This document shows positions 2,917 through 42,483 of a stretch of DNA of 64,000 nt, piece by piece. The notes under the pieces were generated by a model, which did no database searches, was not told the DNA's origin, and saw nothing but the letters and a program-made list of their open reading frames with translations. The position numbers and the translations under genes are program-made. The stretch lies in sequence record NC_042307.1; one strand, given 5' to 3'. The DNA is from a phage. Position 1 is the stretch's first letter, and every line of letters begins with the position of its first letter.

Positions 2917-3401
2917 ATGTCATCCGCCTGTCCACTAGCTGTTGCTGCTAATCTTCTTTCACGTTTCAAGATATTATTAATAATATCTTTTGCATCAGAT
3001 TTATTTTTGGCTGTTTTCTTTATTAATTCAAATAAGAATCTTGGGTTAGGAACTTCAAACTCTTCCTCTCCTAAACATATAGTATACTCTTTTAAGTGTA
3101 GCTGAGTATATTTAGTAAGAGGGAAAGATTCTAGTATTCCCGTACTATCAACAGGAATATGTTCTTTCATAGGGATCACAGCGCATTTCTGTTCTTTCAA
3201 GAAATTCAGGAATCCAATAGTTTGGACATCTTCTGAATCATAGGAGACTTTTCTGATAGTCTCAATAAGCGTAATAGCCTCAAAGGTTAATACAGTTAAA
3301 TAACGTCGTACGGTAGAACCATCGGTTATTTGTAGAAAGTAAACCGACGAATCCTCTGTTGGTTCAAACAGTATATTAGCAAACTTAAATGCTTCTTTCA
3401 T
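2913..3401 (-). CDS. hypothetical protein (162 aa)
   Basis: ORF translationally coupled to neighbours. Confidence 0.5.
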   Translation of the reverse strand: MKEAFKFANILFEPTEDSSVYFLQITDGSTVRRYLTVLTFEAITLIETIRKVSYDSEDVQTIGFLNFLKEQKCAVIPMKEHIPVDSTGILESFPLTKYTQLHLKEYTICLGEEEFEVPNPRFLFELIKKTAKNKSDAKDIINNILKRERRLAATASGQADDI

Positions 3402-21329: not shown

Positions 21330-21698
21330 TTACATCGCCTGAGTAAATGTACGACTAATAACGTCGTTCTGCTGTTCACGCGTCAGTGAGTTAAAACGTA
21401 CAGCATACCCTGAAACACGGATAGTTAATTGAGGGTATTTTTCAGGATGTTTCTGTGCATCCAAAAGCTGATCACGACTTAACACATTGACATTTAGGTG
21501 CTGACCTCCCTCGATTTGAGGAACTACTTCCACCTTGACTTCACGGAAGGATTCGGGGTCAAAATGTGGTGTGATACCTTCTAGATCCTCAACCAGAACT
21601 TTTTGTTTAAGTTCACCATCTTTAGAGTACAGTTGAATAATCTGATTATCATGAACAAGATTAATTACGCCAGACTTAAGATTTTGATATGCTTTCAT
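21330..21698 (-). CDS. GrcA/YfiD-like autonomous glycyl-radical cofactor protein
   Basis: C-terminal '[11 protein letters not shown]...[23 protein letters not shown]'; ATG 21698 with GGAGAG RBS. Confidence 0.65.
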
Positions 21699-21883
21699 TA
21701 GCTCTCCTGTTTGGTAGTTAGTAGTGGATTTGAACCACTGTAGTCGCTCCGTATGAAGGAGGTGCATAACCACTCTGCCAACTAACTATTATGTTTTACT
21801 AGACTAAGTAAGTATTCTTTGTACTCTTTAGACCAATTAGCTTTTTTAAACTTTCCTGGACGCATAGTCTTAATTCCTAAATT

Positions 21884-22984: not shown

Positions 22985-23073
22985 TGGCGGAAGAAGTGGG
23001 AATCGAACCCACAAGGCTATATTTCAAACCGACAGATTAGCAATCTGCTGCAAAACCGTTCTGCTATTTTTCC
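22985..23073 (-). tRNA. tRNA-Ser (anticodon GCU), class II with long variable arm
   Basis: Hand-folded; CCA encoded. Confidence 0.55.
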
Positions 23074-23093
23074 GGATTTATAAATATATTATA

Positions 23094-23612
23094 TTAGAAA
23101 TTTAGCTTCATGGCAAGAAAATTTTTCAAGTTTTCGGTAGACATCTCATCCACATCTATAGGAGAAACAAACCCATTTAATTGTTTAGCAAACTTTTCGC
23201 CAGCAGGATCATTATCCCCAACAGCTACCAATTTAAAAGGTAGTAATTTCAATTGCTTTAATAGCGGTTTTCCTGGAGAAGAACCCAACATTGCTAGAGC
23301 AGGATACCCAGCATTATGTAATGCTACAGCCTTAAATACAGATTCAGCAATTAATACTACTTTTTCATCCCCATTGAGAGTTTCTAGTCCCCATACACAC
23401 TGTGTAGTAGAATAAGTAAAATATCTAGCTTCAAAGGGGCACTTACCATGACCTTTTGGAGCAGAAGGATTATAAGTCTGATAGCCTCTCAACATTCCAG
23501 AGAAGTCATACAATGGGACTGTTAGCCATCCTTCTGGGCTTAACCAGCAGTGATATTTATCTGTATCAAACCCTCTAGATAAGAGATGTTCTGTTAGTTC
23601 ATCAATAGTCAT
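23094..23612 (-). CDS. Toprim-like domain protein
   Basis: 'VVLIAESVFKAVA...VAVGDNDPAGEKFA'; ATG 23612 with GAGAGG RBS. Confidence 0.4.
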   Translation of the reverse strand: MTIDELTEHLLSRGFDTDKYHCWLSPEGWLTVPLYDFSGMLRGYQTYNPSAPKGHGKCPFEARYFTYSTTQCVWGLETLNGDEKVVLIAESVFKAVALHNAGYPALAMLGSSPGKPLLKQLKLLPFKLVAVGDNDPAGEKFAKQLNGFVSPIDVDEMSTENLKNFLAMKLNF

Positions 23613-23831
23613 ACTAGATTCCTCTCTCAAATTTATAAATATATTATGCAGAGAATTTAGCATTCAAGCAATTGAATTTTTTAACTTTTTAGAGGAAAAT
23701 CACAGGATGCTTAAGGGTAGCAGGTAAGTGGGTAGACCCCAAAATTGTTATCCCCACTTGATTTTCAATGTGATATAGTGTAAAGTATTTGTCATAGCTG
23801 AGTGACCAAAGAGACACACTTATCCTCTACC

Positions 23832-23873
23832 TTAAAACAGAAAAGCCCTGCGCTCTCCAGGGAACACAGGGCT
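23832..23873 (-). terminator. Rho-independent terminator
   Basis: Stem AGCCCTG/CAGGGCT, 'tttctgtttt' in minus sense. Confidence 0.55.
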
Positions 23874-23897
23874 TACTTCGAATATTACGTGTGGGAA

Positions 23898-24845
23898 TTA
23901 CTTGTTACGCATATCCATAATCATCTGGCCATCGTAACCAGTGCCAACTACTGTTTGAGGTACACCGCCTTGATATTTCTGAGCACGAATCATTTCAACT
24001 TCTAGTTGTTTCCAGCGAATCATCTCAGGAGTAATAGTACGTTGCAGAGCGGCGTTAGCTTCGGCTTCCTTCTTAGCTGCGTACAGTTTAGCATCTGCAT
24101 CACGTTCGTTTGCAATAGCTTGGTTGTTACGAGCTTCACGATCTGCTTCTGCTTGTTTAACCTTCTGCTGTGCTTCTTGTTCAACACGAGCCAACTCAGC
24201 TTTCGCAGCATTAACTTGTTCCTCACGAACTTTGGTATTCTGTACCTGTTCCATGATTACAGGCGGCAAAGTAATATCCTGAAGGAACACTTGCTTAACT
24301 GTGTAACCATAAGGGCGTGCATACTCTTCAACTTCCTGTTGAATTGCGGTTTGTAATTGAGCCTGGATTTTAGCATCAAACAAATCTTGTGCTTTAGGAA
24401 CAGACTTACCGAACTCACGAATAGTGGACAGTAATTTTTCAGTTACATATTTGTCTAATGCTTGATCCTGGGTACCTGCGTTAATACGGTTAATCGGTGC
24501 CTTAGAACCATCAAACTGCAACATAACAGTCAGGTCAACAGTGGATTTAAACTTATCCTGACTAGGAACCTGAAGTTTATCTAATTTTACAGCAATGTCT
24601 TTTGTACTAAAAGTATCGAAAGATGCAAATGGGTTTACAAGATGAAAACCAGGTAATACAGGATTAGGGTCTACTTTACCCAGAAATGTTTGGGTTTTAA
24701 CCGTACCATCAGAAACAATAGTATATGAATTAAAAGCTAGGATTAAACCTGCTAAACCAACTACAGCACCAATACCCCAACGTTTAATAGTGCGGATTAC
24801 TTTTTGCTCAGAAGTCAGTTCTTTCATATTTTTAGTATTAAACAT
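23898..24845 (-). CDS. SPFH/band-7 (prohibitin/HflC-like) membrane protein
   Basis: N-terminal TM, long Ala/Glu/Gln-rich coiled coil; AAGGA RBS. Confidence 0.55.
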   Translation of the reverse strand: MFNTKNMKELTSEQKVIRTIKRWGIGAVVGLAGLILAFNSYTIVSDGTVKTQTFLGKVDPNPVLPGFHLVNPFASFDTFSTKDIAVKLDKLQVPSQDKFKSTVDLTVMLQFDGSKAPINRINAGTQDQALDKYVTEKLLSTIREFGKSVPKAQDLFDAKIQAQLQTAIQQEVEEYARPYGYTVKQVFLQDITLPPVIMEQVQNTKVREEQVNAAKAELARVEQEAQQKVKQAEADREARNNQAIANERDADAKLYAAKKEAEANAALQRTITPEMIRWKQLEVEMIRAQKYQGGVPQTVVGTGYDGQMIMDMRNK

Positions 24846-24879
24846 ATATTTCCTTTGTTTTAGTTACAGTTAATAAAAT

Positions 24880-24954
24880 TGGCCGAGGTGACAGGATTCG
24901 AACCTGCATAAAGGAATTTAGAAGACTCCTGCCTCTCCCTTAGACTACACCCCG
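24880..24954 (-). tRNA. tRNA-Arg (anticodon UCU)
   Basis: Hand-folded; CCA encoded. Confidence 0.55.
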
Positions 24955-25608
24955 TTTAAGTATTTTTAAGAACTCTCGTAAAAACCCTTAAAAATACAGA
25001 CGATACCGGGAGAGTCATAAGTCTCACTCATTAAGTATTTCAAGACAAAATACAGTAACGTCTATTATTTTCCAGTTTAAGTCAAGGTGACTTAGTGGTT
25101 ATGTCCTGCGGTATACTGAGGACTCGGTTAAGTTAGGGTCATGACTCCCCACCTTTTTGCTGCTACTCAACAGGAGTTATCGCGAATTACCTGTGCTATT
25201 GTGCACCATTAGTGGCATCTCTCATGCCATCATTTCCCACTCTCATATTCACGCGGTCTGTTAGAATCGCACCTCCGATTTTCGATGCGAAGCTGGATGC
25301 CTAGTCTCAAGTTAAACGGGGTACACACTAGGCAGTGATCCCGAGTTCCGAGTTTGGTTGAGGCCGTCAGGTTTCCTCGTGGTTTAGCTGTTTCGATTCT
25401 AACCTAATACTGATCAGGCGGCGTACCTCCTGAACCGTCATAGTATGTACTCCAGCAGCGAATGCTTATCCGGTATAAGCCCCGAGTTATCTGATTCTTT
25501 CCGACCGCAGGATTCGAACCTGCATCTTCCACCAGTTACGGTTTGATATTACCGTTTATACTAGGACGGCAGTGTTATCACATAAGTCAGTTCGACACCC
25601 CACTATTA

Positions 25609-26091
25609 CTAACCAAAGTTAGTAAATTCTTTATGTAAGGATTCTCTTAATATCTTAGAGGCCTCGAAAGCCTCTTCCGCAGTTTTAAACCCTCTTTTAC
25701 TGTAATTTTTTCCTTCATGTCTTACTTGGTATCTCCAGGAAGAGCCTTCCCAACTTACTCCTTTGTACCCAGAAGTATTATTGCATTGTTGGTTTCTATT
25801 CGCATTATTTTGCGATCTAGAGGCGTCCCTTAGATTATTTTTCCTATTATTTCTAGGATTAGTATCCTTATGATCTACTTCTTCAGGCCTATATCCATAG
25901 TACATAATAAATAATAAGACATGCAGTTGATAGGTGTCGCCCTGAAATCCCACATCTGGATGTGATTTCTTATTATTGGCACAACACTCTTTCAAACCTT
26001 TCTTTGTTTTCCTATATAGTATCCCATTATCAGGATCAGCTACAAAATATTTTTCAAGTATTTCTTTAGTAGGGTATTCTTTCCTTTTCAT
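25609..26091 (-). CDS. HNH homing endonuclease (F-Tfl-like, adjacent to tRNA cluster)
   Basis: 'EEVDHKDTNPRNNRKNNLR'. Confidence 0.6.
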   Translation of the reverse strand: MKRKEYPTKEILEKYFVADPDNGILYRKTKKGLKECCANNKKSHPDVGFQGDTYQLHVLLFIMYYGYRPEEVDHKDTNPRNNRKNNLRDASRSQNNANRNQQCNNTSGYKGVSWEGSSWRYQVRHEGKNYSKRGFKTAEEAFEASKILRESLHKEFTNFG

Positions 26092-26097
26092 GAATAT

Positions 26098-26126
26098 ATT
26101 ATACAGAATTTTGAAGCGTTTAGCAA
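26098..26126 (-). promoter_or_regulatory. Sigma70-like early promoter (-35 TTGCTA, -10 TATAAT)
   Basis: Plus 'attata' 26098-26103, 'tagcaa' 26121-26126. Confidence 0.5.
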
Positions 26127-26134
26127 ATTAATTT

Positions 26135-26578
26135 TTAATTAAATTCGCCAGCAACCTGAGCAGCAATGCCACCGTCGTAACGACCAGGAAACTCTTCCTT
26201 AATCGCTTTCATCAGCATACCCTTTGTAATCCCAGGATTCAGCTTAACTAATTCTGCGAAGTATTTGCGAATCTCAGAATCAGATAGCTGAGGAGGCAAA
26301 TACTGCTGTAACCACTTATTTAGAATGTATTCATACTGAGCGGACTGCAAGCTATAACTATCAAGATCTTGACCATGAAGTTTAGCTTTCGTCTGGTTAA
26401 TGCTTTTTAGTTGAGCTTTGAGATAAGACACAAATTGTTCAGAAGTGATGAAATCTTTATCAATACGCTGAAGATCCCCGATTATGGTCTGATAGCTTTT
26501 AGCGACTTCTTTATCAGAACCATTAAACTTAGAATCCTGCAAAGCTCTACGCAAAACATCTAAAATATTCTCTTCCAT
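26135..26578 (-). CDS. hypothetical protein, possibly GatB/YqeY-like
   Basis: Weak recall of YqeY-type helical protein. Confidence 0.3.
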   Translation of the reverse strand: MEENILDVLRRALQDSKFNGSDKEVAKSYQTIIGDLQRIDKDFITSEQFVSYLKAQLKSINQTKAKLHGQDLDSYSLQSAQYEYILNKWLQQYLPPQLSDSEIRKYFAELVKLNPGITKGMLMKAIKEEFPGRYDGGIAAQVAGEFN

Positions 26579-26816: not shown

Positions 26817-27266
26817 TTAAGTTTTAGTGACAACAGGCTTATAAAATGTATGTCCCTTAATCTTAGTTGTTTTCTTAAACTTCTTTGTCCAGTACGGTTT
26901 ATCTTTACCACTATGGAAGTATAAGGCTCCATGTGTAGGATCTTGTGGTAAATCAACGTAGTATATCACTCTAGCTAAATTCTTGGCGGTTTTCCAAGCC
27001 TCATCGGTTTTATCAACTTTTGGTCTCTTAGATACCCAAGAGAACTGGTTAGACTGATATACTACTTTACAGTAGGAATCTGGGAATTTACCGGAGTTTA
27101 CACGGTTTTTAGTAACATGTGCAATCGCCGTCATTCCCTTTATGCCCTCACCACGACTTTCGAAATAGAAAATTTTAGCAATGCAATCTATTTTTTTTGC
27201 ATCGTGCGATGCCTGACTACTAAAGCTGAAGGTAAGGGCAGCTACTAAAAGCAAAGCTGCCTTCAT
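26817..27266 (-). CDS. secreted cell-wall hydrolase (SleB/CwlJ-like)
   Basis: Signal peptide; 'IFYFESRGEG...AIAHVTKNRV'. Confidence 0.55.
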   Translation of the reverse strand: MKAALLLVAALTFSFSSQASHDAKKIDCIAKIFYFESRGEGIKGMTAIAHVTKNRVNSGKFPDSYCKVVYQSNQFSWVSKRPKVDKTDEAWKTAKNLARVIYYVDLPQDPTHGALYFHSGKDKPYWTKKFKKTTKIKGHTFYKPVVTKT

Positions 27267-27278
27267 TCTTTTTACTCC

Positions 27279-28100
27279 TTAAAATAGATCATATTCTAAT
27301 CTATTGGGATTTTCTCGGTATCCATAAGACGTAAGAGTACCCCTCATATACTCTGCGTCAACAGGATTAGATGTTACTAGAACCACTTTTAGTGGTCTTT
27401 GACCTAAAAATAGTATATGATCTAATAAGTCTTTTCCTTGTACCTCTGGATCTCCTAAATCTGAGTCCATAAATAAATAGGATCCTGTGAAACTAAATAT
27501 ATCTGATAGCTCCAGCGCACCTATAACTGTACGACAAATAATGGACATTTCAGGTAGATCTCTAACATCGTCTATTAGAATATTGGTCTGCTTCCCAATT
27601 TCTGCATTACATAAACCATTTACTAGTTTTTCTCTTTCCCCTTTAGCTTGTTCGAAAGTGGTGAAGCCAGGAGATACGAAAAACTTTCCACCTAATGTAA
27701 TGCTATACACAAAACCCTCGGGGAGGAGTTCTACACCTACGGTTTTATTAGTATTAATCCTATTTAACTTAAAATTTGTCTCTCTTAGATTAATAATTCT
27801 GTTATCCCACGGTATAGTATTTATATGGTCGATCATATAAGGCGGCTCTTCACCATAATGGAGCAACCACGCTATTCGGTGTCCATAAATAATTGTGGGT
27901 TTATTATCTAAGAGCAAACTAACTCTGATGTACCCATCAGAGTTCTTACTACATATTTCTCTCCCAGCATATAGGGTGTGCCAAGTTTTATTCTTGTATT
28001 TATTAGGCCTATAAAATAATTTACCGGTATAAGGATTATACTCTATAATTTCTCGAATATAATCTATATATGGTAGTATTTGTTTTTGTAATTTACCCAT
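27279..28100 (-). CDS. HNH-like N-terminal domain fused to unknown C-terminal domain
   Basis: 'GHRIAWLLHYGEEPPYMIDHINTIPWDNRIINLRE' then about 120 aa with 'ILIDDVRD...LFMDSDLG...VVLVTSNP'. Confidence 0.5.
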   Translation of the reverse strand: MGKLQKQILPYIDYIREIIEYNPYTGKLFYRPNKYKNKTWHTLYAGREICSKNSDGYIRVSLLLDNKPTIIYGHRIAWLLHYGEEPPYMIDHINTIPWDNRIINLRETNFKLNRINTNKTVGVELLPEGFVYSITLGGKFFVSPGFTTFEQAKGEREKLVNGLCNAEIGKQTNILIDDVRDLPEMSIICRTVIGALELSDIFSFTGSYLFMDSDLGDPEVQGKDLLDHILFLGQRPLKVVLVTSNPVDAEYMRGTLTSYGYRENPNRLEYDLF

Positions 28101-30494: not shown

Positions 30495-31010
30495 TTACTT
30501 CGCTTTACGCTTACGAGCTGGTTTAGCAGATTTACGAGCAGAATCACCCGTAAATTTAATACCCACACCGTAACACAGAGCACGAACATTATCTTTACTA
30601 TACTCTACGCCAAAGATATTTGGCTTAACAGAACCAAACTGTCCACGAGTATCACGCAATACATCTGCCGTTGGTTTGCGTTTCTGGTTAACTGCTTTCT
30701 CGTAATCTTTCATGGCCATGCCATTACGAGGGAACAATTCTGCTCCAGCATTGAAACTCAGTGCTACGGGAACAGATTTGTGACCATAACCCTGTACATA
30801 GGTCACAAGGCGGGCTACAGAACGAGTAGCATTCTTAGCCTTCGGCTTTTGACGAATCGGAGCCGGACGATTCAGTGCCTGTGCAGCTTGAGCATCAGTA
30901 GGGTGCTTGCGCAGGTGGCGTTCCAGACGAGCTTTGCGGTTAGCCTCAGTCTGCGGGAAAGTTTTTACTGTAGTAGCTGCTTGAGTTTTTGCGTTTTTCT
31001 GCTTAGCCAT
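30495..31010 (-). CDS. basic protein, possible DNA-binding
   Basis: ATG 31010 with AAAGGAAAA RBS; Lys/Arg/Ala-rich. Confidence 0.45.
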   Translation of the reverse strand: MAKQKNAKTQAATTVKTFPQTEANRKARLERHLRKHPTDAQAAQALNRPAPIRQKPKAKNATRSVARLVTYVQGYGHKSVPVALSFNAGAELFPRNGMAMKDYEKAVNQKRKPTADVLRDTRGQFGSVKPNIFGVEYSKDNVRALCYGVGIKFTGDSARKSAKPARKRKAK

Positions 31011-31092
31011 TATTTGTTTTCCTTTTTGTTTATTTTTTATGAAGTATATTATACGGTAATTTGAAGCGTTTAGCAACTGAATTTTTTAAAAA

Positions 31093-31371
31093 TTATCTAC
31101 CAACCATCTTGGCTTGTTCTGCATCGGAAACATATTGATACGCTCCTTTATTATACGCTGGAGCAGTACACATTTTCTTACGCTCAATCTCTTCTTGAGC
31201 TTTTCTTTCGCGTTCAGCTAATTCTTCATCCAGATAAACTAAACGTTGTTCTGGAGGAGGTGGAAGACGTGTTTCTGGCTCACCAATATTAGCCTTTCTT
31301 ATTTGACGAGGTGATTGTGCACGTTTTCTCAATGGTTTAAATCCTAATGAATTTGAGTTATAAATTCGCAT
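31093..31371 (-). CDS. hypothetical protein (92 aa)
   Basis: ORF. Confidence 0.4.
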   Translation of the reverse strand: MRIYNSNSLGFKPLRKRAQSPRQIRKANIGEPETRLPPPPEQRLVYLDEELAERERKAQEEIERKKMCTAPAYNKGAYQYVSDAEQAKMVGR

Positions 31372-31447
31372 AAAGCCCTCCTCACTTTCAATGCGAATAT
31401 TATACTAAATTAGAGGGCTTTAAGCAAGAAGATTTTTAATTTATTTA

Positions 31448-31924
31448 TCACATCTCAGCCATTTCAGCTTCAGTAATAACTGTGTTACACAATGCATCTA
31501 CAGCTTCATTACCACTAATACCAGAATGTCCTTTAACCTTAATAAAGGTAGGGTTAGTATTATGAAAGTTGATATACTGCTGTGTTAATTTAAATGCTTC
31601 CTGCCAAAGTTCTAGATTAAGAGGAACTTCACCATCTGCTTTCTTCCAGCCTTTCCTTTGCCAAGAAAACATCCAACTTTCCATACCATTTTTGCAATAA
31701 GCAGAATCAGTATAGATAACAATTGGCCTATTATCTTTTTTAACTGACCAACGTAGAGCCTCTACAATAGCCGTGAGTTCCATCTCATTATTTGTAGTTT
31801 TAGGACTATATCCAGATTTAGAACCTAAACGATCGTCGTTATCATCATAGACAATAAAACCCCAAGCACCGGGACCTGGGTTAGACTTACAAGCACCATC
31901 TGTGTAAATGTGGAATGTACTCAT
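31448..31924 (-). CDS. rnh: ribonuclease H (RNase HI-like)
   Basis: 'IYTDGAC..NPGPGAWG', 'YTDS'. Confidence 0.7.
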   Translation of the reverse strand: MSTFHIYTDGACKSNPGPGAWGFIVYDDNDDRLGSKSGYSPKTTNNEMELTAIVEALRWSVKKDNRPIVIYTDSAYCKNGMESWMFSWQRKGWKKADGEVPLNLELWQEAFKLTQQYINFHNTNPTFIKVKGHSGISGNEAVDALCNTVITEAEMAEM

Positions 31925-32466
31925 TTATTAAGATCCTCTAAGGTAGGATAATAGTTATTATAAAATGTTTCTTCTACAGCATCTTTACCATGTAACTCAT
32001 GTCGCAAGGTATTTGCTTTTAATACGGCGTTCTCTAAATCTAGATATTCGAATATTCCACCATAAATATTCTTACCCTCACTATTTATTATCTGTACTTG
32101 CCACTTTTGTAGCTGCTTATTCCAATGTACTCCTAAGTACCCTGATTTGCTAGAGGCAGTGCAGTTTCTATTATTAATTTGACTAGTAGATTCTCTTAAA
32201 TTTTTCCATCTATTATCTGACCGTATACGATTTATATGATCTACTAAGTCAGGAATACTTCCTGTCATATACAGAAATGCCAGTCTATGGGCTAGATAAT
32301 CTACCTTATCTATTTTTATAGTTATATAACCATCTTTTCTTAAATAGCCAGCAACTGCTCCGGCTTTACCTCCCCTACCTCTACTTATTTTATTAGTAAA
32401 TATTCCAGTATCGGGATCATAATTTAGAAGTTCTTTTAATCTCTCTAGTGTCGGTTGTTTACTCAT
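31921..32466 (-). CDS. HNH homing endonuclease
   Basis: 'DLVDHINRIRSDNRWKNLR'. Confidence 0.7.
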   Translation of the reverse strand: MSKQPTLERLKELLNYDPDTGIFTNKISRGRGGKAGAVAGYLRKDGYITIKIDKVDYLAHRLAFLYMTGSIPDLVDHINRIRSDNRWKNLRESTSQINNRNCTASSKSGYLGVHWNKQLQKWQVQIINSEGKNIYGGIFEYLDLENAVLKANTLRHELHGKDAVEETFYNNYYPTLEDLNK

Positions 32467-32842
32467 CCAACCACCCTAAATCCATACTAAGAAGCGCTTT
32501 TAATCCAGTTATTCCACTTCCATAAGTATCATAACGAATAGCTGTTCTACTTTTCACTTCTAGAATATCTTCATGTTCTGTGTTTTCTAGGATTTCGGTA
32601 GAAATCCCCAAGTACCCTACTTGGTCCTCCTCATCCCACCCCATATCCTCTAGAAGATTTAGAGATAGTTCTACTCTTTCATCTCCATTACCTACGGAGT
32701 AGTATTCCTCTAGTTTTTTAAACTTTAAAACTAGAGAATCTAGAATTAGTAGGATTTGTTCCTTAGTAATAGTTTCTTTATCACCCTGCAAGTAATTGGA
32801 GTAATTCAGAAGGGCTTGTTCTAATTCAATTTCTTTACTCAT
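32459..32842 (-). CDS. hypothetical acidic protein (127 aa)
   Basis: ORF. Confidence 0.4.
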   Translation of the reverse strand: MSKEIELEQALLNYSNYLQGDKETITKEQILLILDSLVLKFKKLEEYYSVGNGDERVELSLNLLEDMGWDEEDQVGYLGISTEILENTEHEDILEVKSRTAIRYDTYGSGITGLKALLSMDLGWLDE

Positions 32843-32943
32843 TTTATTATCCTTTTGTACTTATTGAGTATATTATATTTAAAATTATACCTAATAAGCA
32901 AGTACAATTTCAAATATAATAGCCCCCGAAAGGGCTATTTAAG

Positions 32944-33783
32944 TTAAGAGGACATTTTAGCTTTAAGAGCTGGATGAGGATCGTACCCCTCTAAATGGAA
33001 TGACCAAGCTGCTGTATTATTTTCTAATAAATCGTAAAGATCTATAAACTCTGGCATTACTAGAGTTGGCAGAGGGCGTGGCTTGCGTTTTACCTGTTCT
33101 TCTACCTGTTCCATGTGGTCATTATAGATATGAGTATCACCGCCACTAAAGATAAGGTAACGAGGTTTTAATCCTGTCAGTTTTGCTAATATATGCGTTA
33201 ATAAAGCATAACTAGCAATATTGAAAGGTAAACCGAGGAAACAATCCACAGAGCGTTGTGCCCATTTAAGATCTAGGTATCCATCGTTACTTACATAGCA
33301 CTGGAAGCCGTAGTGACAAGGTGGTAATGCCATTTTATCAAGTTCAGCTACGTTCCACGCAGAAACTAGATGTCTGCGGCCATGAGGATTATTCTTGAGT
33401 CCTTCAATAAGCTCTAGAATCTGATCTCGCCCACCAAAGTTACGCCACTGTTTACCATATACTGGTCCTAGATTACCCTTATCATACCCCATACTTATAG
33501 CTTGGTCTTCATAATTTGGAGTCCAGATGGTCCACTGTCCTTCGTCACGCCCAAATGTGAATACACGTAGATCATGAAGATTTGTGGAACCAGACAAGAA
33601 CCATAATAGTTCTCCTACTACGGATTTCCAAGCTAGACGTTTGGTAGTGACGGCAGGAAACCCATCACGTAGGTCGAACTTAGCATAGGAATCAAAAATT
33701 GAAACTGTGCCTGTTCCTGTACGGTCATTACGGGGTTCACCCAGTAAAATTACATCTGTCAAAATTTTTAAGTATTGTTGCAT
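32944..33783 (-). CDS. thyA: thymidylate synthase
   Basis: 'MQQYLKILTDVILLGEPRNDRTGTGT', 'LPPCHYGFQ'. Confidence 0.8.
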   Translation of the reverse strand: MQQYLKILTDVILLGEPRNDRTGTGTVSIFDSYAKFDLRDGFPAVTTKRLAWKSVVGELLWFLSGSTNLHDLRVFTFGRDEGQWTIWTPNYEDQAISMGYDKGNLGPVYGKQWRNFGGRDQILELIEGLKNNPHGRRHLVSAWNVAELDKMALPPCHYGFQCYVSNDGYLDLKWAQRSVDCFLGLPFNIASYALLTHILAKLTGLKPRYLIFSGGDTHIYNDHMEQVEEQVKRKPRPLPTLVMPEFIDLYDLLENNTAAWSFHLEGYDPHPALKAKMSS

Positions 33784-34316
33784 TAATAAGTAACCAATTC
33801 CTGTACAAATCGCAGGCTGTTATCACTGTTTGCGCCAACTGCATAGACTAATCGAGTGGATTCATAGTTATAATCCAGTATCATACTATCTAGGTGTATA
33901 TCTGCCTCTAGCTTCTGTTCACTAAAGATTGTAGATACAAAAGCACTTTCAATATGCCCATGTTGATACATTTCTAGAAGAAGATTAGCTCCACCTAGAA
34001 CTACTGTTTGCTGATCTTTTAGAAAAGTAGGTAATGTATCACCTATCATTGATATGGGAGTGTAAATATCATGTGTAATATCGTCTGGCAGTGGACGATC
34101 AGCACGAATAAATAGGTCAGAAGCTCCAATCATACGTTCCCTAACGGCATATGGAAGAGCTAAATAAGTACCTGCCCCAATAATAATATTATCAGGATTT
34201 AGTACATCTAATTGTGAATAAAAAGCATCTAGTTCTTCTTTAAAAGAACCCCAGGGGAGCTTACCTCGGAGGCCGAACTCCCCATTCGGCCCAACTGCAT
34301 ACATTGCTGTAATCAT
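33783..34316 (-). CDS. frd: dihydrofolate reductase
   Basis: 'MITAMYAVGPNGEFGLRGKLPW'; position next to thyA. Confidence 0.7.
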   Translation of the reverse strand: MITAMYAVGPNGEFGLRGKLPWGSFKEELDAFYSQLDVLNPDNIIIGAGTYLALPYAVRERMIGASDLFIRADRPLPDDITHDIYTPISMIGDTLPTFLKDQQTVVLGGANLLLEMYQHGHIESAFVSTIFSEQKLEADIHLDSMILDYNYESTRLVYAVGANSDNSLRFVQELVTY

Positions 34317-35459
34317 AGGAAGTCTCCAAATTCATTACCCAAATCTTTCAAGGTATCAGTAGAGGTCTCAGTTACCTGACCTACACGGTAGGCTGCACCA
34401 ATCTGGATTTCTTGTGGGGCAGGCTGTAGAGAAGTAGTATCCAACCAGTTCATGATCCACGGAATAGGGTTTTTAGTGATTACTGGTAAGTGACTAGGCC
34501 ATTCTACACCAATGTGCATAAATGCGTTACGCCCCACAAAGTACAAGTATTCTTCTAGAAGTTCTGCATTCAAACCAATCAGACTACGACCTTTGAAGAT
34601 GAAATGACCCCATTCAATTTCAGTTTTAAGAGTTTTCAGGAGTTGTGCTGGTGCTTTAGCCACTGCTTCATCTACCAGATCTTTGTCAAACTGCTGGAAC
34701 ATAATCTGGATGATTGTTTTAGACATCTGAGTATGTAGGGCTTCATCTTTAGCAATCAATTGCAGATTTTTAGCAATACCTTGCAGAATATCGTTCTCTG
34801 CTAACGCAAAGGTACATGCAAAGGATGCGTAGAACTGCATTGCTTCCAGACCGTAGATTGCAAAATAAGCATCTAACAGTTTAGCCTGAGTTTCACGCTT
34901 AACCTCAGGGAACTCAGTTTCTGGATATGTATTGTCACCACGATGATCACGTACTGCGATGAAATACTGACCTAACTGGTACAGTTCATCGAACAGCTCA
35001 ACAGAATCAGCGATACGTGCGAATGCTTCTTGGTTTTTGGTTACAGAATCAATAAATTCTGCCGGATCAGTCAGCACATTACGAATAATATTACTATAAG
35101 CACGACTATGCAGGTCTTCAAAGTAGCTCCACTGCTTGAGCATACCTTCTAGTTCTGGACGACTTACAAGCGGCATAATAGCTGCTTCAGGCGCTCGACT
35201 GATAAAGGAATCAGTTTGGGTCTGCCATGCTAAGTTCAGGAGTGTGATTTCCTGAATTTCACGTGGGAGATTGGGCCATTGTTTCTTATCTGCTTCCAGA
35301 CTGATTTCAGTTTCAGTCCAAAATTGAGAGCGTTGCAGAAGTGCCAGACGTTCTAGTTCTGGATGTGCTACACGTACATAATCTGCGATACCTAGAGAAT
35401 CGCCCCAGGAAAAGATCAGCGTTAGTATGATCCCAATTCAGGTTTAGTAAAGTAGTCAT
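34313..35459 (-). CDS. nrdB: ribonucleotide reductase small subunit NrdB, interrupted by apparent +1 frameshift near 35401-35404
   Basis: Track ORF 34313..35176 carries 'FYASFACTFALAE', 'DEALH'; N-terminal homology continues upstream in same frame to 35437, but RBS+ATG at 35459 is in another frame. Confidence 0.6.
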
Positions 35460-35594
35460 TGATTTTCCTCTTTCTCACTATTTCAGGAATATTATAGCAA
35501 ATCAGGTAGCGATTAGCAGGTAAAATTATAAACTATCAAGCTCCAATAGTTTCATATCGCGCCACTCTATAGCATCCTCAAGTTCTTGGAATGT

Positions 35595-36017
35595 TTAAGT
35601 ATATTTTACACCTTTACGGGCTATCTGTACCTGGTAAGATCCGCTAGCTTTTGGATGAATATTTTTAATACCTAACTTATTATCTTTATGCGCCCCGACA
35701 TTCTTTCCGTTACTGAATCTATCAGAAGCTACTAGGTTAATAGCTCTATTATCATGTCGTATTCTATTGTCGTGGTCTACTTCAGGTGGCAGATACCCAT
35801 GAATTTTAGCAAAGATTACCCTATGTGCTAAGTAGGGGTATCCTTTAATATTTAATACTATATATCCTGTAGATTTATCTAAGGAGCCTGCTGGTTTTCC
35901 GGCATATTTGGTATTAAATGTTTTATTATCTCTAGGTCTATGAGTTAATATTCCAGTATATGGATCATAATCAAATAATTTAGCTACCTCTAGATGATCT
36001 TCTAATGTTTTTGACAT
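35595..36017 (-). CDS. HNH homing endonuclease inserted between nrdA and nrdB
   Basis: 'PEVDHDNRIRHDNRAINL'; ATG 36017. Confidence 0.6.
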   Translation of the reverse strand: MSKTLEDHLEVAKLFDYDPYTGILTHRPRDNKTFNTKYAGKPAGSLDKSTGYIVLNIKGYPYLAHRVIFAKIHGYLPPEVDHDNRIRHDNRAINLVASDRFSNGKNVGAHKDNKLGIKNIHPKASGSYQVQIARKGVKYT

Positions 36018-36082
36018 AATTATAATTTCCAACCAATTAGTATAAAAAATAAGAGGGTTATAATTAACCCTCTTTACTAGTT

Positions 36083-38410
36083 TTATAAGGTACAGCCACC
36101 TGAAGAACATCCTGTAGTTTCTCCAGCTCCTCCACCATTCGCAGTGTTAAAGTTAGCATAATACCAGGTTTTTATACCATACTTAACCGCAGTCATAAAG
36201 TCACGAACTACTACTGGGCCAGGGATGATTTCATTCTCGAATTTAGAGTAATCATAATACATCTGGAAACTTGATGACTGACTCAAGAATTTTTGGTAAA
36301 CGGCGTTCCATTTGATCCACTCAGTGCGATCAATATCATAAGCTAGTTTATAGCTCATTAACGTTTCCCAGTCGGTTGCACCTGGAGCAATTGCAATTAC
36401 TTTATTTACTGCACTACCTTTGATAGATACAATCTTACGAGGTGGTTCGATAGAGTTAGTAACACCTAACAGAACAGAAGAACTTTCTCCCGGCATCTGA
36501 GCAGTCAGAACAGAGTTACGCATACCATATTTCAGAATATCTGCACGCAGAGACTCCCAATCCATTTCTAGACCTACGGATACCAGTTCATCAACAGTTT
36601 TCTTGTACGTGTCGATTACCAGAGTTCCTTTAGATGGTTTAGTACGATCGAACCATTCACATGCACCTTGCTCTTTGGCTAGACGTACAGAGGCTTTATG
36701 CAGGAAGTAGGACAATTTTTCAGCTTCACGATGAATCCAGTTACGAGCCTCAATACCTTCATAAGCCAGACCTTCTGCTGCCATTGCACCTGCTGCGTTC
36801 ATCAGACCAATACCAACGTTACGACGTTTCTTAGCCGTATATTCCATAGTTGGGAACGGGTAATCCTGAATTTCAATGATGGTATCAACAAATTTCAGAA
36901 GAATATAGCAAGTCTTTTCCCACTCAGCCAGAGATTCCATGCGTCCTAATACAACACCACCTAAGTTACACAGAGATACTTCCCCAATATCCTCCGGCTT
37001 CATTTGATCGAGTTGTTCTTTTGTTTTATACAGTTCCGTGATATGATGGAACGGGCGTGTAGGCTGAGTAATTTCAACACAAAGGTTGGTCATACGAATC
37101 GGGTCAAGGAAGTTACCATGACGGTTAGATTCACCAATGTGATGAGCATACATACGCCCTGTTTCCATACGGATACGTAACCAAGTATCTAGGATTTCTT
37201 TTGCAGAGATTCTAGGAGCTGCTGGAATTGTTTTTCCTTCGTGGTCGGTCTTTGTAAGAGATGCCACACGTTTCTCCGCTGCCACGTAGATTTCTTCAAA
37301 CTTAGCCTCATCTTCACCATAAAACGCTTCATGAACTTCTGGTGCGTAGAAGTAGGACATTAGCGTAATATCTTCGTTTTTCAGGTAACGTTTTAACAGA
37401 AGGTTGTTAAAGCTCAGAGAATAATCCATCTTATCGATTTTATTCTCGTCTGTAGCACGTTGCTGCTTAACCTGCATCAACTGAATGATTTCAGGATCGA
37501 AGTATGGATAAGACACAGTAGCAGAACCGCCACGGGTTTGCTGAGTGTTAGCTTTTACTGAACGGTCAATGTGTCGATAATATGGCAGTTTTCCGGAATG
37601 CGGGAATGCCCCATTTCGCACCGGATCAGCAATTGATCGGCTTTCAAGATGATACCCGATTCCCGCTCTGGCTGCGACCATTTTGAAGACGATGTGCTCG
37701 GCTGTGTCGATTGAATCCAACGTGTCAGTGGAATCCACGAGGCAGCAACTAGCAAATCCACGGTCACTAGAACGCAAACCAACCAGTGGCGGCGTAGGAA
37801 CGTTGATTTTGTGGAGCGACATTGCATTGTAGAGATCGATTGCATCTAGAATTGTCCAGTTGGGTTGAGATAACATCGCCATTGCCATGCCCATATAGGC
37901 AAATTGCGGGGTTTCGTAAATTTCACCAGTGGCTATATTACGACGGGAATATTTATCAAAGAACTGTTTCAGTCCACCACTAGTAAAAAGACGGTCACGA
38001 TCGTGGTCTATAACCTGATTCAGAGCTTCAAATTGCTCATCGGTAATCCATGCACTCATGTCTTCCCATGCACCTACACTAACCATATGATCGTGGAAGA
38101 AGCGTAGAGAAGGTGGTTCGAAGGAATCATAAAGGCGTTTACGCATCTGCGCAAGACGTAATTCCTTTGCTGGCACGTCGTATGCTGGATTATCTTTAAT
38201 AAGACTTTCGGCAGCTTTAATTAACGCATCCATCAGAGTATCGGAATCTACAACCCCTTTAGGCAGAGTTTTTTGAGCAGCCATAGTAATGGCAGACCAA
38301 CTTACATCAACTGTTTTGCAACCATACTCTGCCCAACCATTGAGTTTTTCAGGAGCAAAGTCTTCTACAGTACCGTCACGTTTAATTACTTTTTCAATGC
38401 GATGGCTCAT
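36083..38410 (-). CDS. nrdA: ribonucleotide reductase large subunit NrdA
   Basis: ATP-cone N-terminus, 'CNLG', C-terminal Cys pair; ATG 38410 with AAGGA RBS. Confidence 0.8.
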   Translation of the reverse strand: MSHRIEKVIKRDGTVEDFAPEKLNGWAEYGCKTVDVSWSAITMAAQKTLPKGVVDSDTLMDALIKAAESLIKDNPAYDVPAKELRLAQMRKRLYDSFEPPSLRFFHDHMVSVGAWEDMSAWITDEQFEALNQVIDHDRDRLFTSGGLKQFFDKYSRRNIATGEIYETPQFAYMGMAMAMLSQPNWTILDAIDLYNAMSLHKINVPTPPLVGLRSSDRGFASCCLVDSTDTLDSIDTAEHIVFKMVAARAGIGYHLESRSIADPVRNGAFPHSGKLPYYRHIDRSVKANTQQTRGGSATVSYPYFDPEIIQLMQVKQQRATDENKIDKMDYSLSFNNLLLKRYLKNEDITLMSYFYAPEVHEAFYGEDEAKFEEIYVAAEKRVASLTKTDHEGKTIPAAPRISAKEILDTWLRIRMETGRMYAHHIGESNRHGNFLDPIRMTNLCVEITQPTRPFHHITELYKTKEQLDQMKPEDIGEVSLCNLGGVVLGRMESLAEWEKTCYILLKFVDTIIEIQDYPFPTMEYTAKKRRNVGIGLMNAAGAMAAEGLAYEGIEARNWIHREAEKLSYFLHKASVRLAKEQGACEWFDRTKPSKGTLVIDTYKKTVDELVSVGLEMDWESLRADILKYGMRNSVLTAQMPGESSSVLLGVTNSIEPPRKIVSIKGSAVNKVIAIAPGATDWETLMSYKLAYDIDRTEWIKWNAVYQKFLSQSSSFQMYYDYSKFENEIIPGPVVVRDFMTAVKYGIKTWYYANFNTANGGGAGETTGCSSGGCTL

Positions 38411-38554
38411 TTGGTTTTCCTTTTTATAGTTATCAGGATTTAGGAAATAGTTTACTTTATTCTCAGTCATTTGGCAAATAAAATTTTCTGATAGAAAAGG
38501 CCCGAGTATTTTCATACCCAGGCCTCCTGTGTTGTCAGTCTAGTTTTTGGCCAC

Positions 38555-38752
38555 TTAAGTTCTCAGCAGAATATCTATTGAGGTACTTAGTTCATTATAA
38601 TTGAAGGGCCGATTTGGATTTGAGGTTACAATTGTCCACGCTAGGGTAGTCTTAGGACTTTCTTCCCCTTCCTTACGTGTAATCATATTAGCAGCACTCA
38701 GTGAAGTACGATGTATTTTAGTTTGTCGGTGTAAATGTACAACGTCTCCCAT
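38555..38752 (-). CDS. small hypothetical protein (65 aa)
   Basis: ATG 38752 immediately after phoH stop. Confidence 0.3.
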   Translation of the reverse strand: MGDVVHLHRQTKIHRTSLSAANMITRKEGEESPKTTLAWTIVTSNPNRPFNYNELSTSIDILLRT

Positions 38753-39777: not shown

Positions 39778-39800
39778 AGGTGTAAAAATTCTGTGGAGAA

Positions 39801-40670
39801 GTGGAATGCCCGAAAAAATTAACTCAAGAAGAAGTAGATAAATGCCTAGCCGAGCGTGGTTTTACTATGGTGGATAAGCCATATCAAAATTCTAGGTATA
39901 GGCATACGTATCAGTGTGAATACGGTCACCAATGGACAGCTAAATTTGACGCTATTAGGAATGGAAAGACCAATTGTCCTACTTGCTCTATTAGTAGCCG
40001 TAAACTAGATATTGATAAAATTAATACTATATTACAGGACAGAGGTATTACATTGTTGAACGGCTATAAAAATAGTGCCGATATAAATACTAAATTTAGG
40101 TGTGTTTGTGGTCATGAGTGGGCTACTACACTTAATAGTATAATTAATAGAGGTAGTGGCTGCCCATCTTGTGCTGCTAATAAACAGAAACTTAGTGTTA
40201 ATACTATAAATGATCGTCTTGCTGCCAGAAATATCAGAATAGTGGGTGAGTATAGTAATGCGAATACTAAGACCGCCTTTCTTTGTGGTGCAGGGCATAG
40301 GTGGGAAGCTACTCCAGGGTCTGTATTAAGGGGGAACGGTTGTCCTTACTGTAGTTATAGAGATTTAGAAAGTACTAGGATATATGTTATGTATAGCCCC
40401 TCACATGGGGTTAAAATAGGTAGGTCTAACAATCCAGAGCGTAGACTTCTACATATTAGATCTAGTAGCCACCTTATTGATTTGGAAATAATTAAAGTAT
40501 TTGAAATTGGGGAATATAGTAGTGCAGTTCGAATAGAAAAATTAGCCCATAACTACTTTAAAGAGCAGAATTGCCAGTACAAAGATTTTGACGGCGCTAC
40601 GGAATTCTTCAATATTGAACCAAAAGTAGCTATAAAGTTTATCGAGGAAATAATCAATGACAGAGAATGA
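39801..40670 (+). CDS. T5orf172/GIY-YIG-like endonuclease with four zinc-ribbon repeats (GTG start)
   Basis: Repeated 'C.C.H.W....GCP.C'; 'RIYVMYSPSHGVKIGRS'. Confidence 0.55.
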   Translation: MECPKKLTQEEVDKCLAERGFTMVDKPYQNSRYRHTYQCEYGHQWTAKFDAIRNGKTNCPTCSISSRKLDIDKINTILQDRGITLLNGYKNSADINTKFRCVCGHEWATTLNSIINRGSGCPSCAANKQKLSVNTINDRLAARNIRIVGEYSNANTKTAFLCGAGHRWEATPGSVLRGNGCPYCSYRDLESTRIYVMYSPSHGVKIGRSNNPERRLLHIRSSSHLIDLEIIKVFEIGEYSSAVRIEKLAHNYFKEQNCQYKDFDGATEFFNIEPKVAIKFIEEIINDRE

Positions 40671-42483
40671 ATTAATTGAGAATTGCAAAGGTCTGCTCAC
40701 TCTAACTGCGGATAAGGACTTACAGCATAATAATGCTAATAAGCCTAGTGAGATGTTCCATACTCAAAGAGACTTATTGGCCGGAGAAATCAACAAATAT
40801 TTAGTATCGCAGGAATTACCCAAACATCTATTAGACGCCCATAATCTAGGTAAGATACACATTCATGATATGGATTACAGGGCGCAGGGGTACACTAACT
40901 GTTGCTTAGTAGACCTTGGTGGCATGCTGAAGAATGGTACTAAAATTGGTAATGCAAATATTGAAACTCCTAAATCCATAACTACTGCATGTGCAATCAC
41001 TGCTCAGATTATTGCCCAAGTATCTGGTGCTCAGTATGGTGGCACCTCTATTGATCGTATCGACGAGGTTCTAGCCCCGTATGTCAGAAAGTCTTACAAT
41101 AAACATCTGGGTCGTGGGCTACGTTGGCTCAAGGATGAAAGAAAAGCTGCTGTGTATGCTACTGAGCTTACTGAAAAAGAGTGTTATGATGCATTCCAAG
41201 CTCTAGAGTATGAAACTAATTCATTATTTAACTCTAATGGGCAGACCCCTTTTGTTACGCTTGGCTTTGGATTAGGTCAGGAGTGGGAGGAAAGGATGAT
41301 TCAGAAAGCCATCCTCCAAAATCGTATTAAAGGTTTAGGTGCTGCTGAGTCAACCCCTATCTTCCCTAAACTAGTATTCTCAGTTAAAGAAGGGTTAAAT
41401 AAAAATCCAGGCGATCCTAACTACGATATAAAACAGCTAGCACTTGAGTGTTCTGCTACCCGTATGTACCCAGACTATTTAAGCTATGAGAAAGTTGTAG
41501 CTGTTACTGGTGATTTTAAAGCCCCTATGGGTTGTCGTAGCTTTTTATCTGCTATCCCCTCCGGAGAAATTGCAGGGCGCAATAATTTAGGTGTAGTGTC
41601 TATTAATCTACCTATGGTTGCTGCTGAGGCAGATGGGGTTTTTGAAGATTTCTGGGATATTCTGGACAAATATGTGGATGAGGCTTTTGAAGCTCATGAT
41701 TTTTTCTTGGATAGACTTAAGAAAGTGAAGGCTAAACAAGCCCCTATTCTTTATATGCACGGTGGTTTTGGTGTGCGTTTAGATGGGGAAGAGTATGTAT
41801 GGCCTATTTTTGAGGGTAGATCTTCTGTATCTCTTGGATACATTGGGGTCTATGAGATGTGCCAAATAATGTTTAGTCTACCACAAACCCATAGGGATTG
41901 TATTGAATTTACAGAAGAAGTTCTTACTCACCTAAAAAATCGTTGCGAAGTTAAAGCTAATGAGACTAATCTTGGATTTAGCTTATACGCTACCCCTAGT
42001 GAGTCTCTATGTAATCGTTTTAATAAATTACTAGAACGTAGATTCCCAGAGTATTCTTGGTTAACAGACAAAGGCTATCTTACTAATAGTCACCATTTGG
42101 ACGTAAGAGAGAAGGTAGCCCCAGATACTAAATTTGAGTACGAAGCTCATTTTACCAAAATAGCTAATGGTGGTAATATATCGTTTGTGGAATTACCACA
42201 AATGAAAAAATTCCATAAAGCTCTTGAATACGTAGTAGATAAGGGACTAGAGTGTAGCCATTATATCGGTGTTAATATACCGATTGACGAGTGTTTCAAC
42301 TGTGGATATATGGGTGAATCTATTGCCTCTGAGCGTGGGTTTGTATGTCCAAGTTGTGGGTCTGAAGAAATAGAGGTTACACGTAGGGTTTGCGGGTACC
42401 TGGGATCCCCGGGCAGTAGGCCTTTCAATTCTGGGAAACAAAAAGAAGTGCTTGGTAGAGTAAAACACTTAAATCTTAAGTAA
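40657..42483 (+). CDS. nrdD: anaerobic ribonucleoside-triphosphate reductase NrdD
   Basis: Glycyl radical 'RRVCGYLG', zinc site 'CFNCG...CPSCG'. Confidence 0.8.
   Translation: MTENELIENCKGLLTLTADKDLQHNNANKPSEMFHTQRDLLAGEINKYLVSQELPKHLLDAHNLGKIHIHDMDYRAQGYTNCCLVDLGGMLKNGTKIGNANIETPKSITTACAITAQIIAQVSGAQYGGTSIDRIDEVLAPYVRKSYNKHLGRGLRWLKDERKAAVYATELTEKECYDAFQALEYETNSLFNSNGQTPFVTLGFGLGQEWEERMIQKAILQNRIKGLGAAESTPIFPKLVFSVKEGLNKNPGDPNYDIKQLALECSATRMYPDYLSYEKVVAVTGDFKAPMGCRSFLSAIPSGEIAGRNNLGVVSINLPMVAAEADGVFEDFWDILDKYVDEAFEAHDFFLDRLKKVKAKQAPILYMHGGFGVRLDGEEYVWPIFEGRSSVSLGYIGVYEMCQIMFSLPQTHRDCIEFTEEVLTHLKNRCEVKANETNLGFSLYATPSESLCNRFNKLLERRFPEYSWLTDKGYLTNSHHLDVREKVAPDTKFEYEAHFTKIANGGNISFVELPQMKKFHKALEYVVDKGLECSHYIGVNIPIDECFNCGYMGESIASERGFVCPSCGSEEIEVTRRVCGYLGSPGSRPFNSGKQKEVLGRVKHLNLK

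Follow-up and report, generated by a model that had tools for sequence, protein, structure and literature searches.

The T5.080-type SPFH/Band-7 membrane protein encoded in a phage tRNA gene region

The DNA considered here, referred to as the window, is a stretch of 64,000 nucleotides from a phage (sequence record NC_042307.1), and within its tRNA gene region an open reading frame (ORF) of 315 codons is found on the minus strand at positions 23898..24845. The ORF is real, and its product is a single-pass membrane protein with the complete architecture of an SPFH protomer, in which a basic N-terminal tail and a transmembrane helix precede the SPFH domain, and about 95 residues of helix and a Gly-rich C-terminal tail follow it. 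The best explanation overall, to which a probability of roughly 0.55 can be assigned, is that the gene is the orthologue of T5.080 of T5-like phages (Tequintavirus), an accessory early gene, whose product would form a homo-oligomeric cage on the host inner membrane and confer a conditional benefit.

The gene and its identity

The ORF list gives the 315-aa frame with an ATG start, and its immediate signals are as follows.

23898..24845, minus strand: coding sequence of the 315-aa SPFH/Band-7 protein, orthologue of T5.080 and of BF23 ORF trn 1.1 (ORF list, Pfam, T5 AAS77126, BF23 CAE53207)
24851..24855, minus strand: Shine-Dalgarno sequence AAGGA, 6 nt 5' of the ATG (upstream sequence; BF23 annotates a ribosome-binding site at the equivalent place)
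23833..23874, minus strand: intrinsic terminator 3' of the coding sequence, with a 13-bp GC-rich stem and a T-tract, placed at 23843..23874 by the terminator scan (terminator scan, RNA fold, T5/BF23 annotation)

A chance frame can be dismissed, because 22 homologues of the protein at 57-88% identity keep 62 invariant columns in common. The protein is 99.4% identical to T5.080 (AAS77126) over all 315 residues, and its counterparts in phages EC122 and SP15 are 100% identical; the 3 kb surrounding the gene show 88-99% identity to Tequintavirus genomes of Salmonella, Escherichia and Shigella. It also belongs to PHROG 200 (phrog_200, E 1.7e-86, residues 4-314). The T5 record describes T5.080 as 'conserved hypothetical protein ... 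contains single transmembrane domain' and notes similarity to Aeh1ORF064c and 44RRORF098c, and the orthologue in BF23 is named 'ORF trn 1.1' (CAE53207). The name 'SPFH domain-containing protein' is already used for the orthologue in JLBYU43, Kenya-K15, fuchur and polluks, and Band-7 Pfam matches of the T4-like homologues were tabulated in 2006 (PMC1524935). The SPFH assignment is correct but already known, the Band-7 domain having been noted for two decades.

Architecture and structural relatives of the protein

Residues 52-225 match Pfam Band_7 (PF01145), scoring 64.2 bits where the gathering cutoff is 23.6 bits (E 2e-17), which bears out the assignment made in an earlier note on this DNA, where a profile search for Band_7 had been named as the check. 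The note had further ascribed to the protein an N-terminal transmembrane segment and a long charged coiled coil typical of HflK/C or prohibitin-like scaffolds; a membrane anchor adjoining the SPFH domain and long helices C-terminal to the domain are both present. The segments of the protein are listed below from the N-terminus.

24780..24845, minus strand: basic N-terminal tail, codons 1-22, with 6 K/R and 2 D/E (composition)
24723..24779, minus strand: single hydrophobic transmembrane segment, codons 23-41, region of WGIGAVVGLAGLILAFNSY (Kyte-Doolittle, AlphaFold helix)
24171..24692, minus strand: SPFH/Band_7 domain, codons 52-225 (Pfam envelope, model, invariant columns)
23976..24263, minus strand: long charged helices, codons 195-290, made up of 195-270 and 273-290 (DSSP of the model, Foldseek)
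23901..23975, minus strand: conserved Gly-rich C-terminal tail, codons 291-315, with two short strands (model, alignment)

The Kyte-Doolittle profile reaches its peak of 1.79 in 19-residue windows starting at residues 25-27. Within the SPFH domain lies the invariant VPSQDK motif (residues 93-98), which served as a search pattern. Residues 206-290 (85 aa) contain 16 K/R, 16 D/E and 28 A/Q, so that 38% of this part is charged and 33% is Ala or Gln. In an AlphaFold2 monomer model built on the 22 homologues, with a mean predicted local distance difference test score (pLDDT) of 78, a helix spanning residues 12-38 is followed by an alpha/beta domain (41-192), the helices 195-270 and 273-290, and two C-terminal strands (299-302 and 308-311) that are modelled at low pLDDT in the monomer. 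The helices 195-290 would be the counterparts of the CC1/CC2 helices that form the wall in SPFH cages. In the C-terminal tail Y291 is invariant, and G293, V295, P296, T298, G301, G306, D311 and R313 are invariant or nearly so; by comparison with published SPFH cage structures, this tail is a candidate cap-forming segment.

A Foldseek comparison of the model with full-length protomers of SPFH cages aligned 265-313 columns, in all cases with a probability of 1.0. The E values for the targets are as follows.

Erlin1/2: E 5.7e-15
Prohibitin 1/2: E 3.5e-13
HflK/C: E 3.2e-12
Stomatin: E 3.2e-12
QmcA: E 9.8e-11
Flotillin: E 3e-8
Major vault protein: E about 2e-6

At the sequence level, the matches among solved structures are limited to QmcA, the prohibitins and a stomatin of Pyrococcus. 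The nearest are QmcA and prohibitin-2, both with the single sequence (E 1.8e-6 and 8.6e-5, respectively) and with the family profile (E 1.9e-7 and 7.6e-5, respectively). HflK/C is absent from these sequence matches, and no NCBIfam family, the HflK and HflC models included, matches the protein at E<=1; orthology to HflK/HflC was rejected for want of an NCBIfam match. The window holds no second SPFH gene, as tblastn of the protein against it finds the protein itself alone, and the paralogous subunit pair typical of HflK/HflC is not seen, the neighbours being Toprim, tRNA genes, HNH and YqeY-like ORFs. Pfam searches of nine flanking ORFs likewise detected no NfeD partner. In the earlier note, the protein had been called HflK/C- or prohibitin-like; the likeness holds at the level of structure, where both are matched, but it is not specific to HflK/C, which no NCBIfam match supports, and the nearest sequences are those of QmcA and prohibitin. 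The protein belongs to a stand-alone, prohibitin-like branch of the SPFH superfamily and is not an orthologue of HflK, HflC or QmcA.

Predicted assembly, membrane orientation and dispensability

To our knowledge, every SPFH protein with a solved full-length structure forms a closed membrane ring or cage, in which the long helices build the wall and the C-termini the cap. The conserved helix and Gly-rich C-terminal tail of the phage protein fit this picture, and the conserved strands would be compatible with a cap, falling short of proof. Neighbouring protomers would thus pack laterally and close into a ring or cage on the inner membrane of the host, presumably a homo-oligomer because the window holds a single SPFH gene. 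With the basic tail in the cytoplasm and the SPFH domain and helical wall in the periplasm, in the orientation of HflK/C, prohibitin and erlin, such a cage could fence off a patch of membrane and either shield the enclosed proteins or lipids or withhold them from the remaining membrane. FtsH-type protease is the textbook client of SPFH cages. The benefit to the phage would be conditional on host or stress and would lie outside the core lytic programme.

The orientation is predicted from charge. Six K/R precede the transmembrane segment, compared with one K in the 15 residues after it, and 109 of 118 close homologues are likewise richer in K/R before the segment than after it. By the positive-inside rule, the basic N-terminal tail would be cytoplasmic. 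The three best structural matches in Foldseek all belong to the class that is generally regarded as exoplasm-facing type II. On the predicted features it is accordingly quite probable that the protein is oriented N-in/C-out, which would put the cage on the periplasmic side, like those of HflK/C, prohibitin and erlin. The opposite arrangement, a scaffold facing the cytoplasm in the manner of QmcA, stomatin and flotillin, has the best sequence match among solved structures (QmcA) in its favor and is somewhat improbable: QmcA has no basic residues before its transmembrane segment compared with six in the window protein, no NfeD-type partner was found among the adjacent ORFs tested, and the best structural matches face the exoplasm.

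With regard to dispensability, the SPFH gene can be lost without abolishing growth. In NG_S8, a natural Epseptimavirus isolate (LC788711, 2750..3129), an in-frame internal deletion has fused residues 1-17 to residues 275-315; the same genome also carries an unrelated 66-aa ORF inserted after tRNA-Arg. The T5Mos deletion (30661-38625) was considered as a further piece of evidence and set aside, as it ends before T5.080 (39791-40738) and says nothing on the gene. T5-like phages lie outside the coverage of the HIDEN-SEQ preprint. In the CRISPRi-ART screen of T5, a transcriptome-wide knockdown with dCas13d, T5.080 was scored 'Not Fit' with 7 guides (fitness -4.28, p 0.85; PMC11879866, supplementary file 16).

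Several points weigh against the explanation of T5.080 as a conditionally useful, periplasm-facing cage. The cage would be an extrapolation from other SPFH families, and the model at hand is that of a monomer. QmcA, the best sequence match among solved structures, faces the cytoplasm, and the crude charge count behind the topology mis-scores HflC of E. coli. The orientation is treated as a prediction because the simple positive-inside count fails with HflC, and it is rated no higher than quite probable because of this failure together with the cytoplasmic face of QmcA. Literature searches on the function of phage SPFH proteins returned only annotation-level mentions, with no client, partner or phenotype among them, and no functional study of such a protein was found in the library searched. 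The authors of CRISPRi-ART warn that guide consistency falls outside the pre-early region of T5 (PMC11879866), and because of this drop the 'Not Fit' score counts as weak negative evidence.

Locus and transcription unit

As the earlier note had stated, the gene is embedded in a tRNA cluster. ARAGORN finds six tRNA genes on its strand, with tRNA-Arg ending upstream of the ATG and tRNA-Ser lying beyond the next ORF downstream. The elements of the region are listed below from the downstream to the upstream side of the SPFH gene.

22985..23073, minus strand: tRNA-Ser (GCU), beyond the next ORF downstream, followed by tRNA-Gly, -Thr, -Ile and -Met (ARAGORN)
23094..23663, minus strand: Toprim protein, 189 aa, T5.076 homologue, just downstream (flanking-ORF scan)
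24880..24954, minus strand: tRNA-Arg (UCU), ending 34 nt before the ATG (ARAGORN; Rfam tRNA, 49.3 bits)
24955..25612, minus strand: region homologous to the T5 stable RNA 'RNAX' (blastn against the T5 locus; T5/BF23 annotation)
25499..25570, minus strand (T5 locus 3236..3307): tRNA-like element in the 5' part of the RNAX region, not called by ARAGORN (Rfam)
25609..26091, minus strand: HNH_3 endonuclease ORF, 160 aa, between the promoter-like site and the RNAX homology (Pfam, T5 alignment)
26098..26126, minus strand: sigma-70-type promoter-like site TTGCTA-17-TATAAT (promoter scan, 10/12 matches; aligns with T5 promoter P16-17)
26135..26578, minus strand: YqeY-like ORF (flanking-ORF scan)
26817..27266, minus strand: SleB-type cell-wall hydrolase, 149 aa, T5.083 homologue with a signal-peptide-like N-terminus (Pfam Hydrolase_2, E 2.4e-25)
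27279..28100, minus strand: 273-aa ORF with HNH_3 (residues 73-107) and a C-terminal cREC_REC 'cyclic-phosphate processing receiver' (173-257) (Pfam)

In T5, P16-17 is the annotated promoter of the unit containing RNAX, tRNA-Arg and T5.080. The unit as curated in T5 and BF23 comprises P16-17, RNAX, tRNA-Arg, the T5.080-type ORF as its last gene, a mapped DNA nick and the terminator ter1, and on alignment the window has the same order save for the HNH insertion and the missing T5.077-079 genes. The SPFH gene would therefore be the last cistron of a P16-17-type unit with RNAX and tRNA-Arg, plus the inserted HNH gene in this phage. Since the promoter scan found no promoter-like site between tRNA-Arg and the SPFH ATG, the mRNA would derive from a tRNA-containing precursor, from which tRNA processing probably releases it. 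The HNH_3 ORF looks like a mobile homing-endonuclease insertion because it is absent at the T5 position. The tRNA-like element in the RNAX region scores 29.3 bits with the Rfam tRNA model in the window (gathering score 29) and 38.3 bits in T5, and RNAX may be, at least partly, a degenerate tRNA.

On the 3' side of the SPFH gene, the terminator hairpin starts 23 nt past the stop codon and has a folding energy of -23.1 kcal/mol (z -2.67 vs shuffles); it is the counterpart of the bidirectional terminator ter1 of T5 and BF23. Its loop, at about 23850..23856 on the minus strand, contains GAGCGC and aligns with the major single-strand DNA interruption annotated in T5 and BF23 (consensus Pu-GCGC), the nick site and the terminator thus overlapping at this position. 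The T5.077-T5.079 cassette, three genes of about 1.8 kb located between ter1 and promoter P12 in T5 and BF23, is absent at about 23758..23820 of the window, where the flanks are joined.

Further features of the neighbourhood concern the adjoining genes. T5.076 is listed as an anti-retron protein and scored 'Semi-Fit' (PMC11879866, supplementary files 1 and 8); as the downstream Toprim protein is its homologue, the SPFH gene adjoins a reported counter-defence gene. The T5.083-type hydrolase is an early-region secreted muramidase that stands apart from the lysis cassette, and it is found upstream of YqeY-like and SPFH genes in distant T5-like contigs too. A stand-alone cREC_REC ORF occurs on a related T5-like contig (L070, 11468..11806), and the 273-aa ORF of the window may represent an HNH insertion that has fused with a resident gene or lies directly against it. 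An ORF at 21330..21773 on the minus strand has a glycyl-radical-like motif at its end and extends on the 5' side into tRNA-Met (21712..21787, minus strand); its true start is probably located further downstream.

Distribution in phages and in bacterial chromosomes

A homologue of the SPFH protein was found by tblastn in 725 of 50,697 phage records, 431 of them at an identity of at least 90% and 216 at 60-80%. The high-identity group consists of T5-like phages of Salmonella, Escherichia and Shigella. Several genera of T4-like phages encode homologues too, those of Klebsiella, Enterobacter and Cronobacter (RB43/GAP161 type) at 73-78% identity and those of Aeromonas at about 60%, and more distant proteins of Vibrio and Aeromonas phages show about 35%. 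SPFH folds also occur in Vibrio, Rhizobium and Streptomyces phages and in many giant viruses. The earlier description of such proteins as uncommon in phages is thus unfair, given the 725 records, the existence of PHROG 200, the SPFH labels already in use and the Band-7 table of 2006.

The search for relatives outside phages was guided by a profile and took one genome from each bacterial species. Chromosomal homologues occur in Morganella and Providencia at 57-59% identity, and Methylococcales, Methylophagaceae and other mostly gammaproteobacterial metagenome-assembled genomes carry homologues at 33-41%. In Morganella, the genes run from an amino-acid permease through a TetR regulator and an alcohol dehydrogenase to the SPFH gene, which is followed by HlyD and an ABC-C39 exporter, and in one Methylophagaceae genome, the order is trpB - trpA - accD - folC - SPFH. 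A neighbour-joining tree, which carries no support values, places the methylotroph genes as the outgroup and nests the Morganellaceae genes in the phage clade. The latter are 79-80% identical to two metagenomic proteins (P0113 and P0110) encoded on T5-like contigs (L070 and L072), where the order is DHFR - ThyA - RNase H ... Hydrolase_2 - YqeY ... Band_7. The window has the equivalent order of Hydrolase_2, YqeY-like and SPFH genes, and this synteny is kept in T5-like contigs whose SPFH protein is just about 60% identical; because distant T5-like contigs and the window share the order, the Hydrolase_2 - YqeY - SPFH arrangement is old in T5-like phages. The tree and these identities suggest that the Morganellaceae chromosomal copy was captured from a virulent T5-like phage.

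An exhaustive search of representatives returned 36 clusters at E<=1e-30 and 955 at E<=1e-3, and a 42%-identical member of the family was found among unannotated small ORFs in a phage-like setting. Two records call for caution in their labels. A contig of an assembly of Flagellimonas marina, a member of the Flavobacteriia (NZ_JBHSCL010000010.1, 178,077 bp), encodes a 73%-identical homologue that in the neighbour-joining tree clusters tightly with the protein of Cronobacter phage GAP161, and this contig most likely stems from contamination with the genome of a T4-like phage of enterobacteria. Another homologue (P0028) is encoded in a 174-kb record labelled as a Klebsiella 'plasmid', which may be a phage genome as well.

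Candidate roles and alternative explanations

Three roles can be considered for a T5.080 cage, namely capture of FtsH, membrane protection or counter-defence, and control of lysis timing, of which the first and last had been raised in the earlier note as modulation of host membrane proteases or of lysis timing; all three are speculative, and the support for each is by association.

In the first, the phage cage would act as a mimic of HflK/C that captures host FtsH hexamers and alters how FtsH substrates, or membrane proteins of the phage, are turned over during infection. HflK/C is linked to phage lambda via FtsH. The model matches the HflK/C-FtsH complexes 7vhq, 7wi3 and 9cz2 as well as prohibitin with a probability of 1.0, and the predicted N-in/C-out topology is that of HflK/C. 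The lack of any HflK/HflC match in NCBIfam or among sequence matches to solved structures, as described above, and the presence of one gene instead of a heteromeric pair nevertheless make this role doubtful, and the logic of lambda CII is inapplicable because T5 is strictly lytic.

A role in counter-defence or membrane protection is about equally doubtful. The cage would protect the inner membrane, by stabilizing or insulating it, from membrane-targeting or envelope-sensing abortive-infection effectors, or it would contain the damage caused by the T5 DNA-injection channel. The gene lies in the tRNA region of T5, where many anti-defence functions have by now come to light; PARIS is neutralized by the tRNA-Lys of T5 (PMC11464382), and the adjoining T5.076 is the anti-retron protein mentioned above (PMC11879866). 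The gene is dispensable on laboratory K-12 and lost in one isolate, and its identity of 75-78% across the unrelated Demerecviridae and Straboviridae is typical of accessory genes. A Bacillus SPFH protein is reported to tether the phage-shock protein PspA to the membrane (PMC8581546). Such reasoning is guilt by association, however, and the bacterial chromosomal relatives stand in housekeeping contexts, which suggests a general membrane role over dedicated anti-defence. No PADLOC defence-system model matches at E<=1, although that library covers defence systems and not anti-defence genes; membership in a known defence system was rejected on this empty scan.

Lysis timing, in which a periplasm-facing scaffold would restrain or organize the action of holin and antiholin or of envelope hydrolases, is highly unlikely. 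The Pseudotevenvirus GAP161 has the order tk - rI (lysis inhibition) - rI.-1 - SPFH, and in T5-like phages the secreted SleB-type hydrolase is encoded about 2 kb upstream in a conserved arrangement. In the Aeromonas Tulanevirus, by contrast, the rI-like gene is 3 kb off, and the SPFH gene adjoins a pilin-like ORF and a member of a PHROG of unknown function; the case for lysis inhibition from conserved neighbours was rejected, as rI is adjacent in GAP161 but not in the Aeromonas phage. Moreover, T4-like phages have a general hyperplastic region at tk-rI, neither a holin nor an endolysin was found next to the gene in the window, and T5 annotation assigns the gene to the early and not the late transcription class. 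Lastly, the label 'lipoprotein', which is the description of PHROG 200 and is used in many GenBank records, several phage records included, is wrong, because a protein without cysteine cannot have a lipobox: the window protein contains zero cysteines, 112 of 118 close homologues are also free of cysteine, and a lipobox-like motif occurs in just 3 of 269 relatives.

Significance

For a specialist, nothing in the sequence evidence is surprising, and the gene is a candidate for routine follow-up. The immediate value is one of curation, in that the gene should be named an SPFH/prohibitin-like membrane protein, not 'lipoprotein' or 'hypothetical protein', and should not be described as rare. A bolder proposal is that phages build a periplasm-facing SPFH cage as a conditional weapon, which would tie up FtsH or a different envelope protein, or else insulate the membrane from membrane-targeting or envelope-sensing abortive-infection effectors; such a proposal appears unlikely at present. 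If it were true, the protein would be a structural factor of a new class, serving anti-defence or host takeover, that is traded between T5-like and T4-like phages and has even been captured by Morganellaceae chromosomes. Conserved and under strong constraint, the gene passes between virulent phage families that are unrelated, and in T5 it lies in a region from which anti-PARIS and anti-retron factors have recently come. What a viral SPFH cage does can be asked in T5, a tractable model.

Comparison with known systems

The closest counterpart of the locus is that of T5 and BF23, where the orthologue likewise follows RNAX and tRNA-Arg and precedes ter1. Unlike T5, the window phage has no opposite-strand T5.077-079 cassette, and it has an HNH gene between the promoter and RNAX. 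The T4-like SPFH proteins RB43ORF139c, 44RRORF098c, Aeh1ORF064c and GAP161_127 are equal in length and architecture at 60-78% identity; their genes belong to Straboviridae and are found in the tk-rI region, whereas the window gene is located in a tRNA cluster. Bacterial chromosomal genes resemble the phage gene in family and length, and also stand alone without an NfeD partner, but their context is cellular and not that of a prophage.

Among SPFH proteins of solved structure, QmcA (PDB 8z5g, QmcA-YbbJ complex) is similar in size and shares the N-terminal transmembrane helix, the SPFH domain and the helical wall at about 20% identity. QmcA has the NfeD protein YbbJ as its partner, whereas the window gene has no NfeD neighbour among the flanking ORFs tested; QmcA also has no basic N-terminal tail, and the predicted orientation of the window protein is opposite. 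Compared with the pairs HflK/HflC, in complex with FtsH (7vhq, 7wi3, 9cz2), and prohibitin PHB1/PHB2 (8rrh, 9o9z), the window gene is single, its product shows 16-19% identity and no HflK/HflC model matches it. Its model nonetheless matches these structures over their full length with a probability of 1.0, and it shares with HflK/C and prohibitin a predicted type II anchor, a predicted exoplasmic SPFH domain and a putatively cage-forming architecture.

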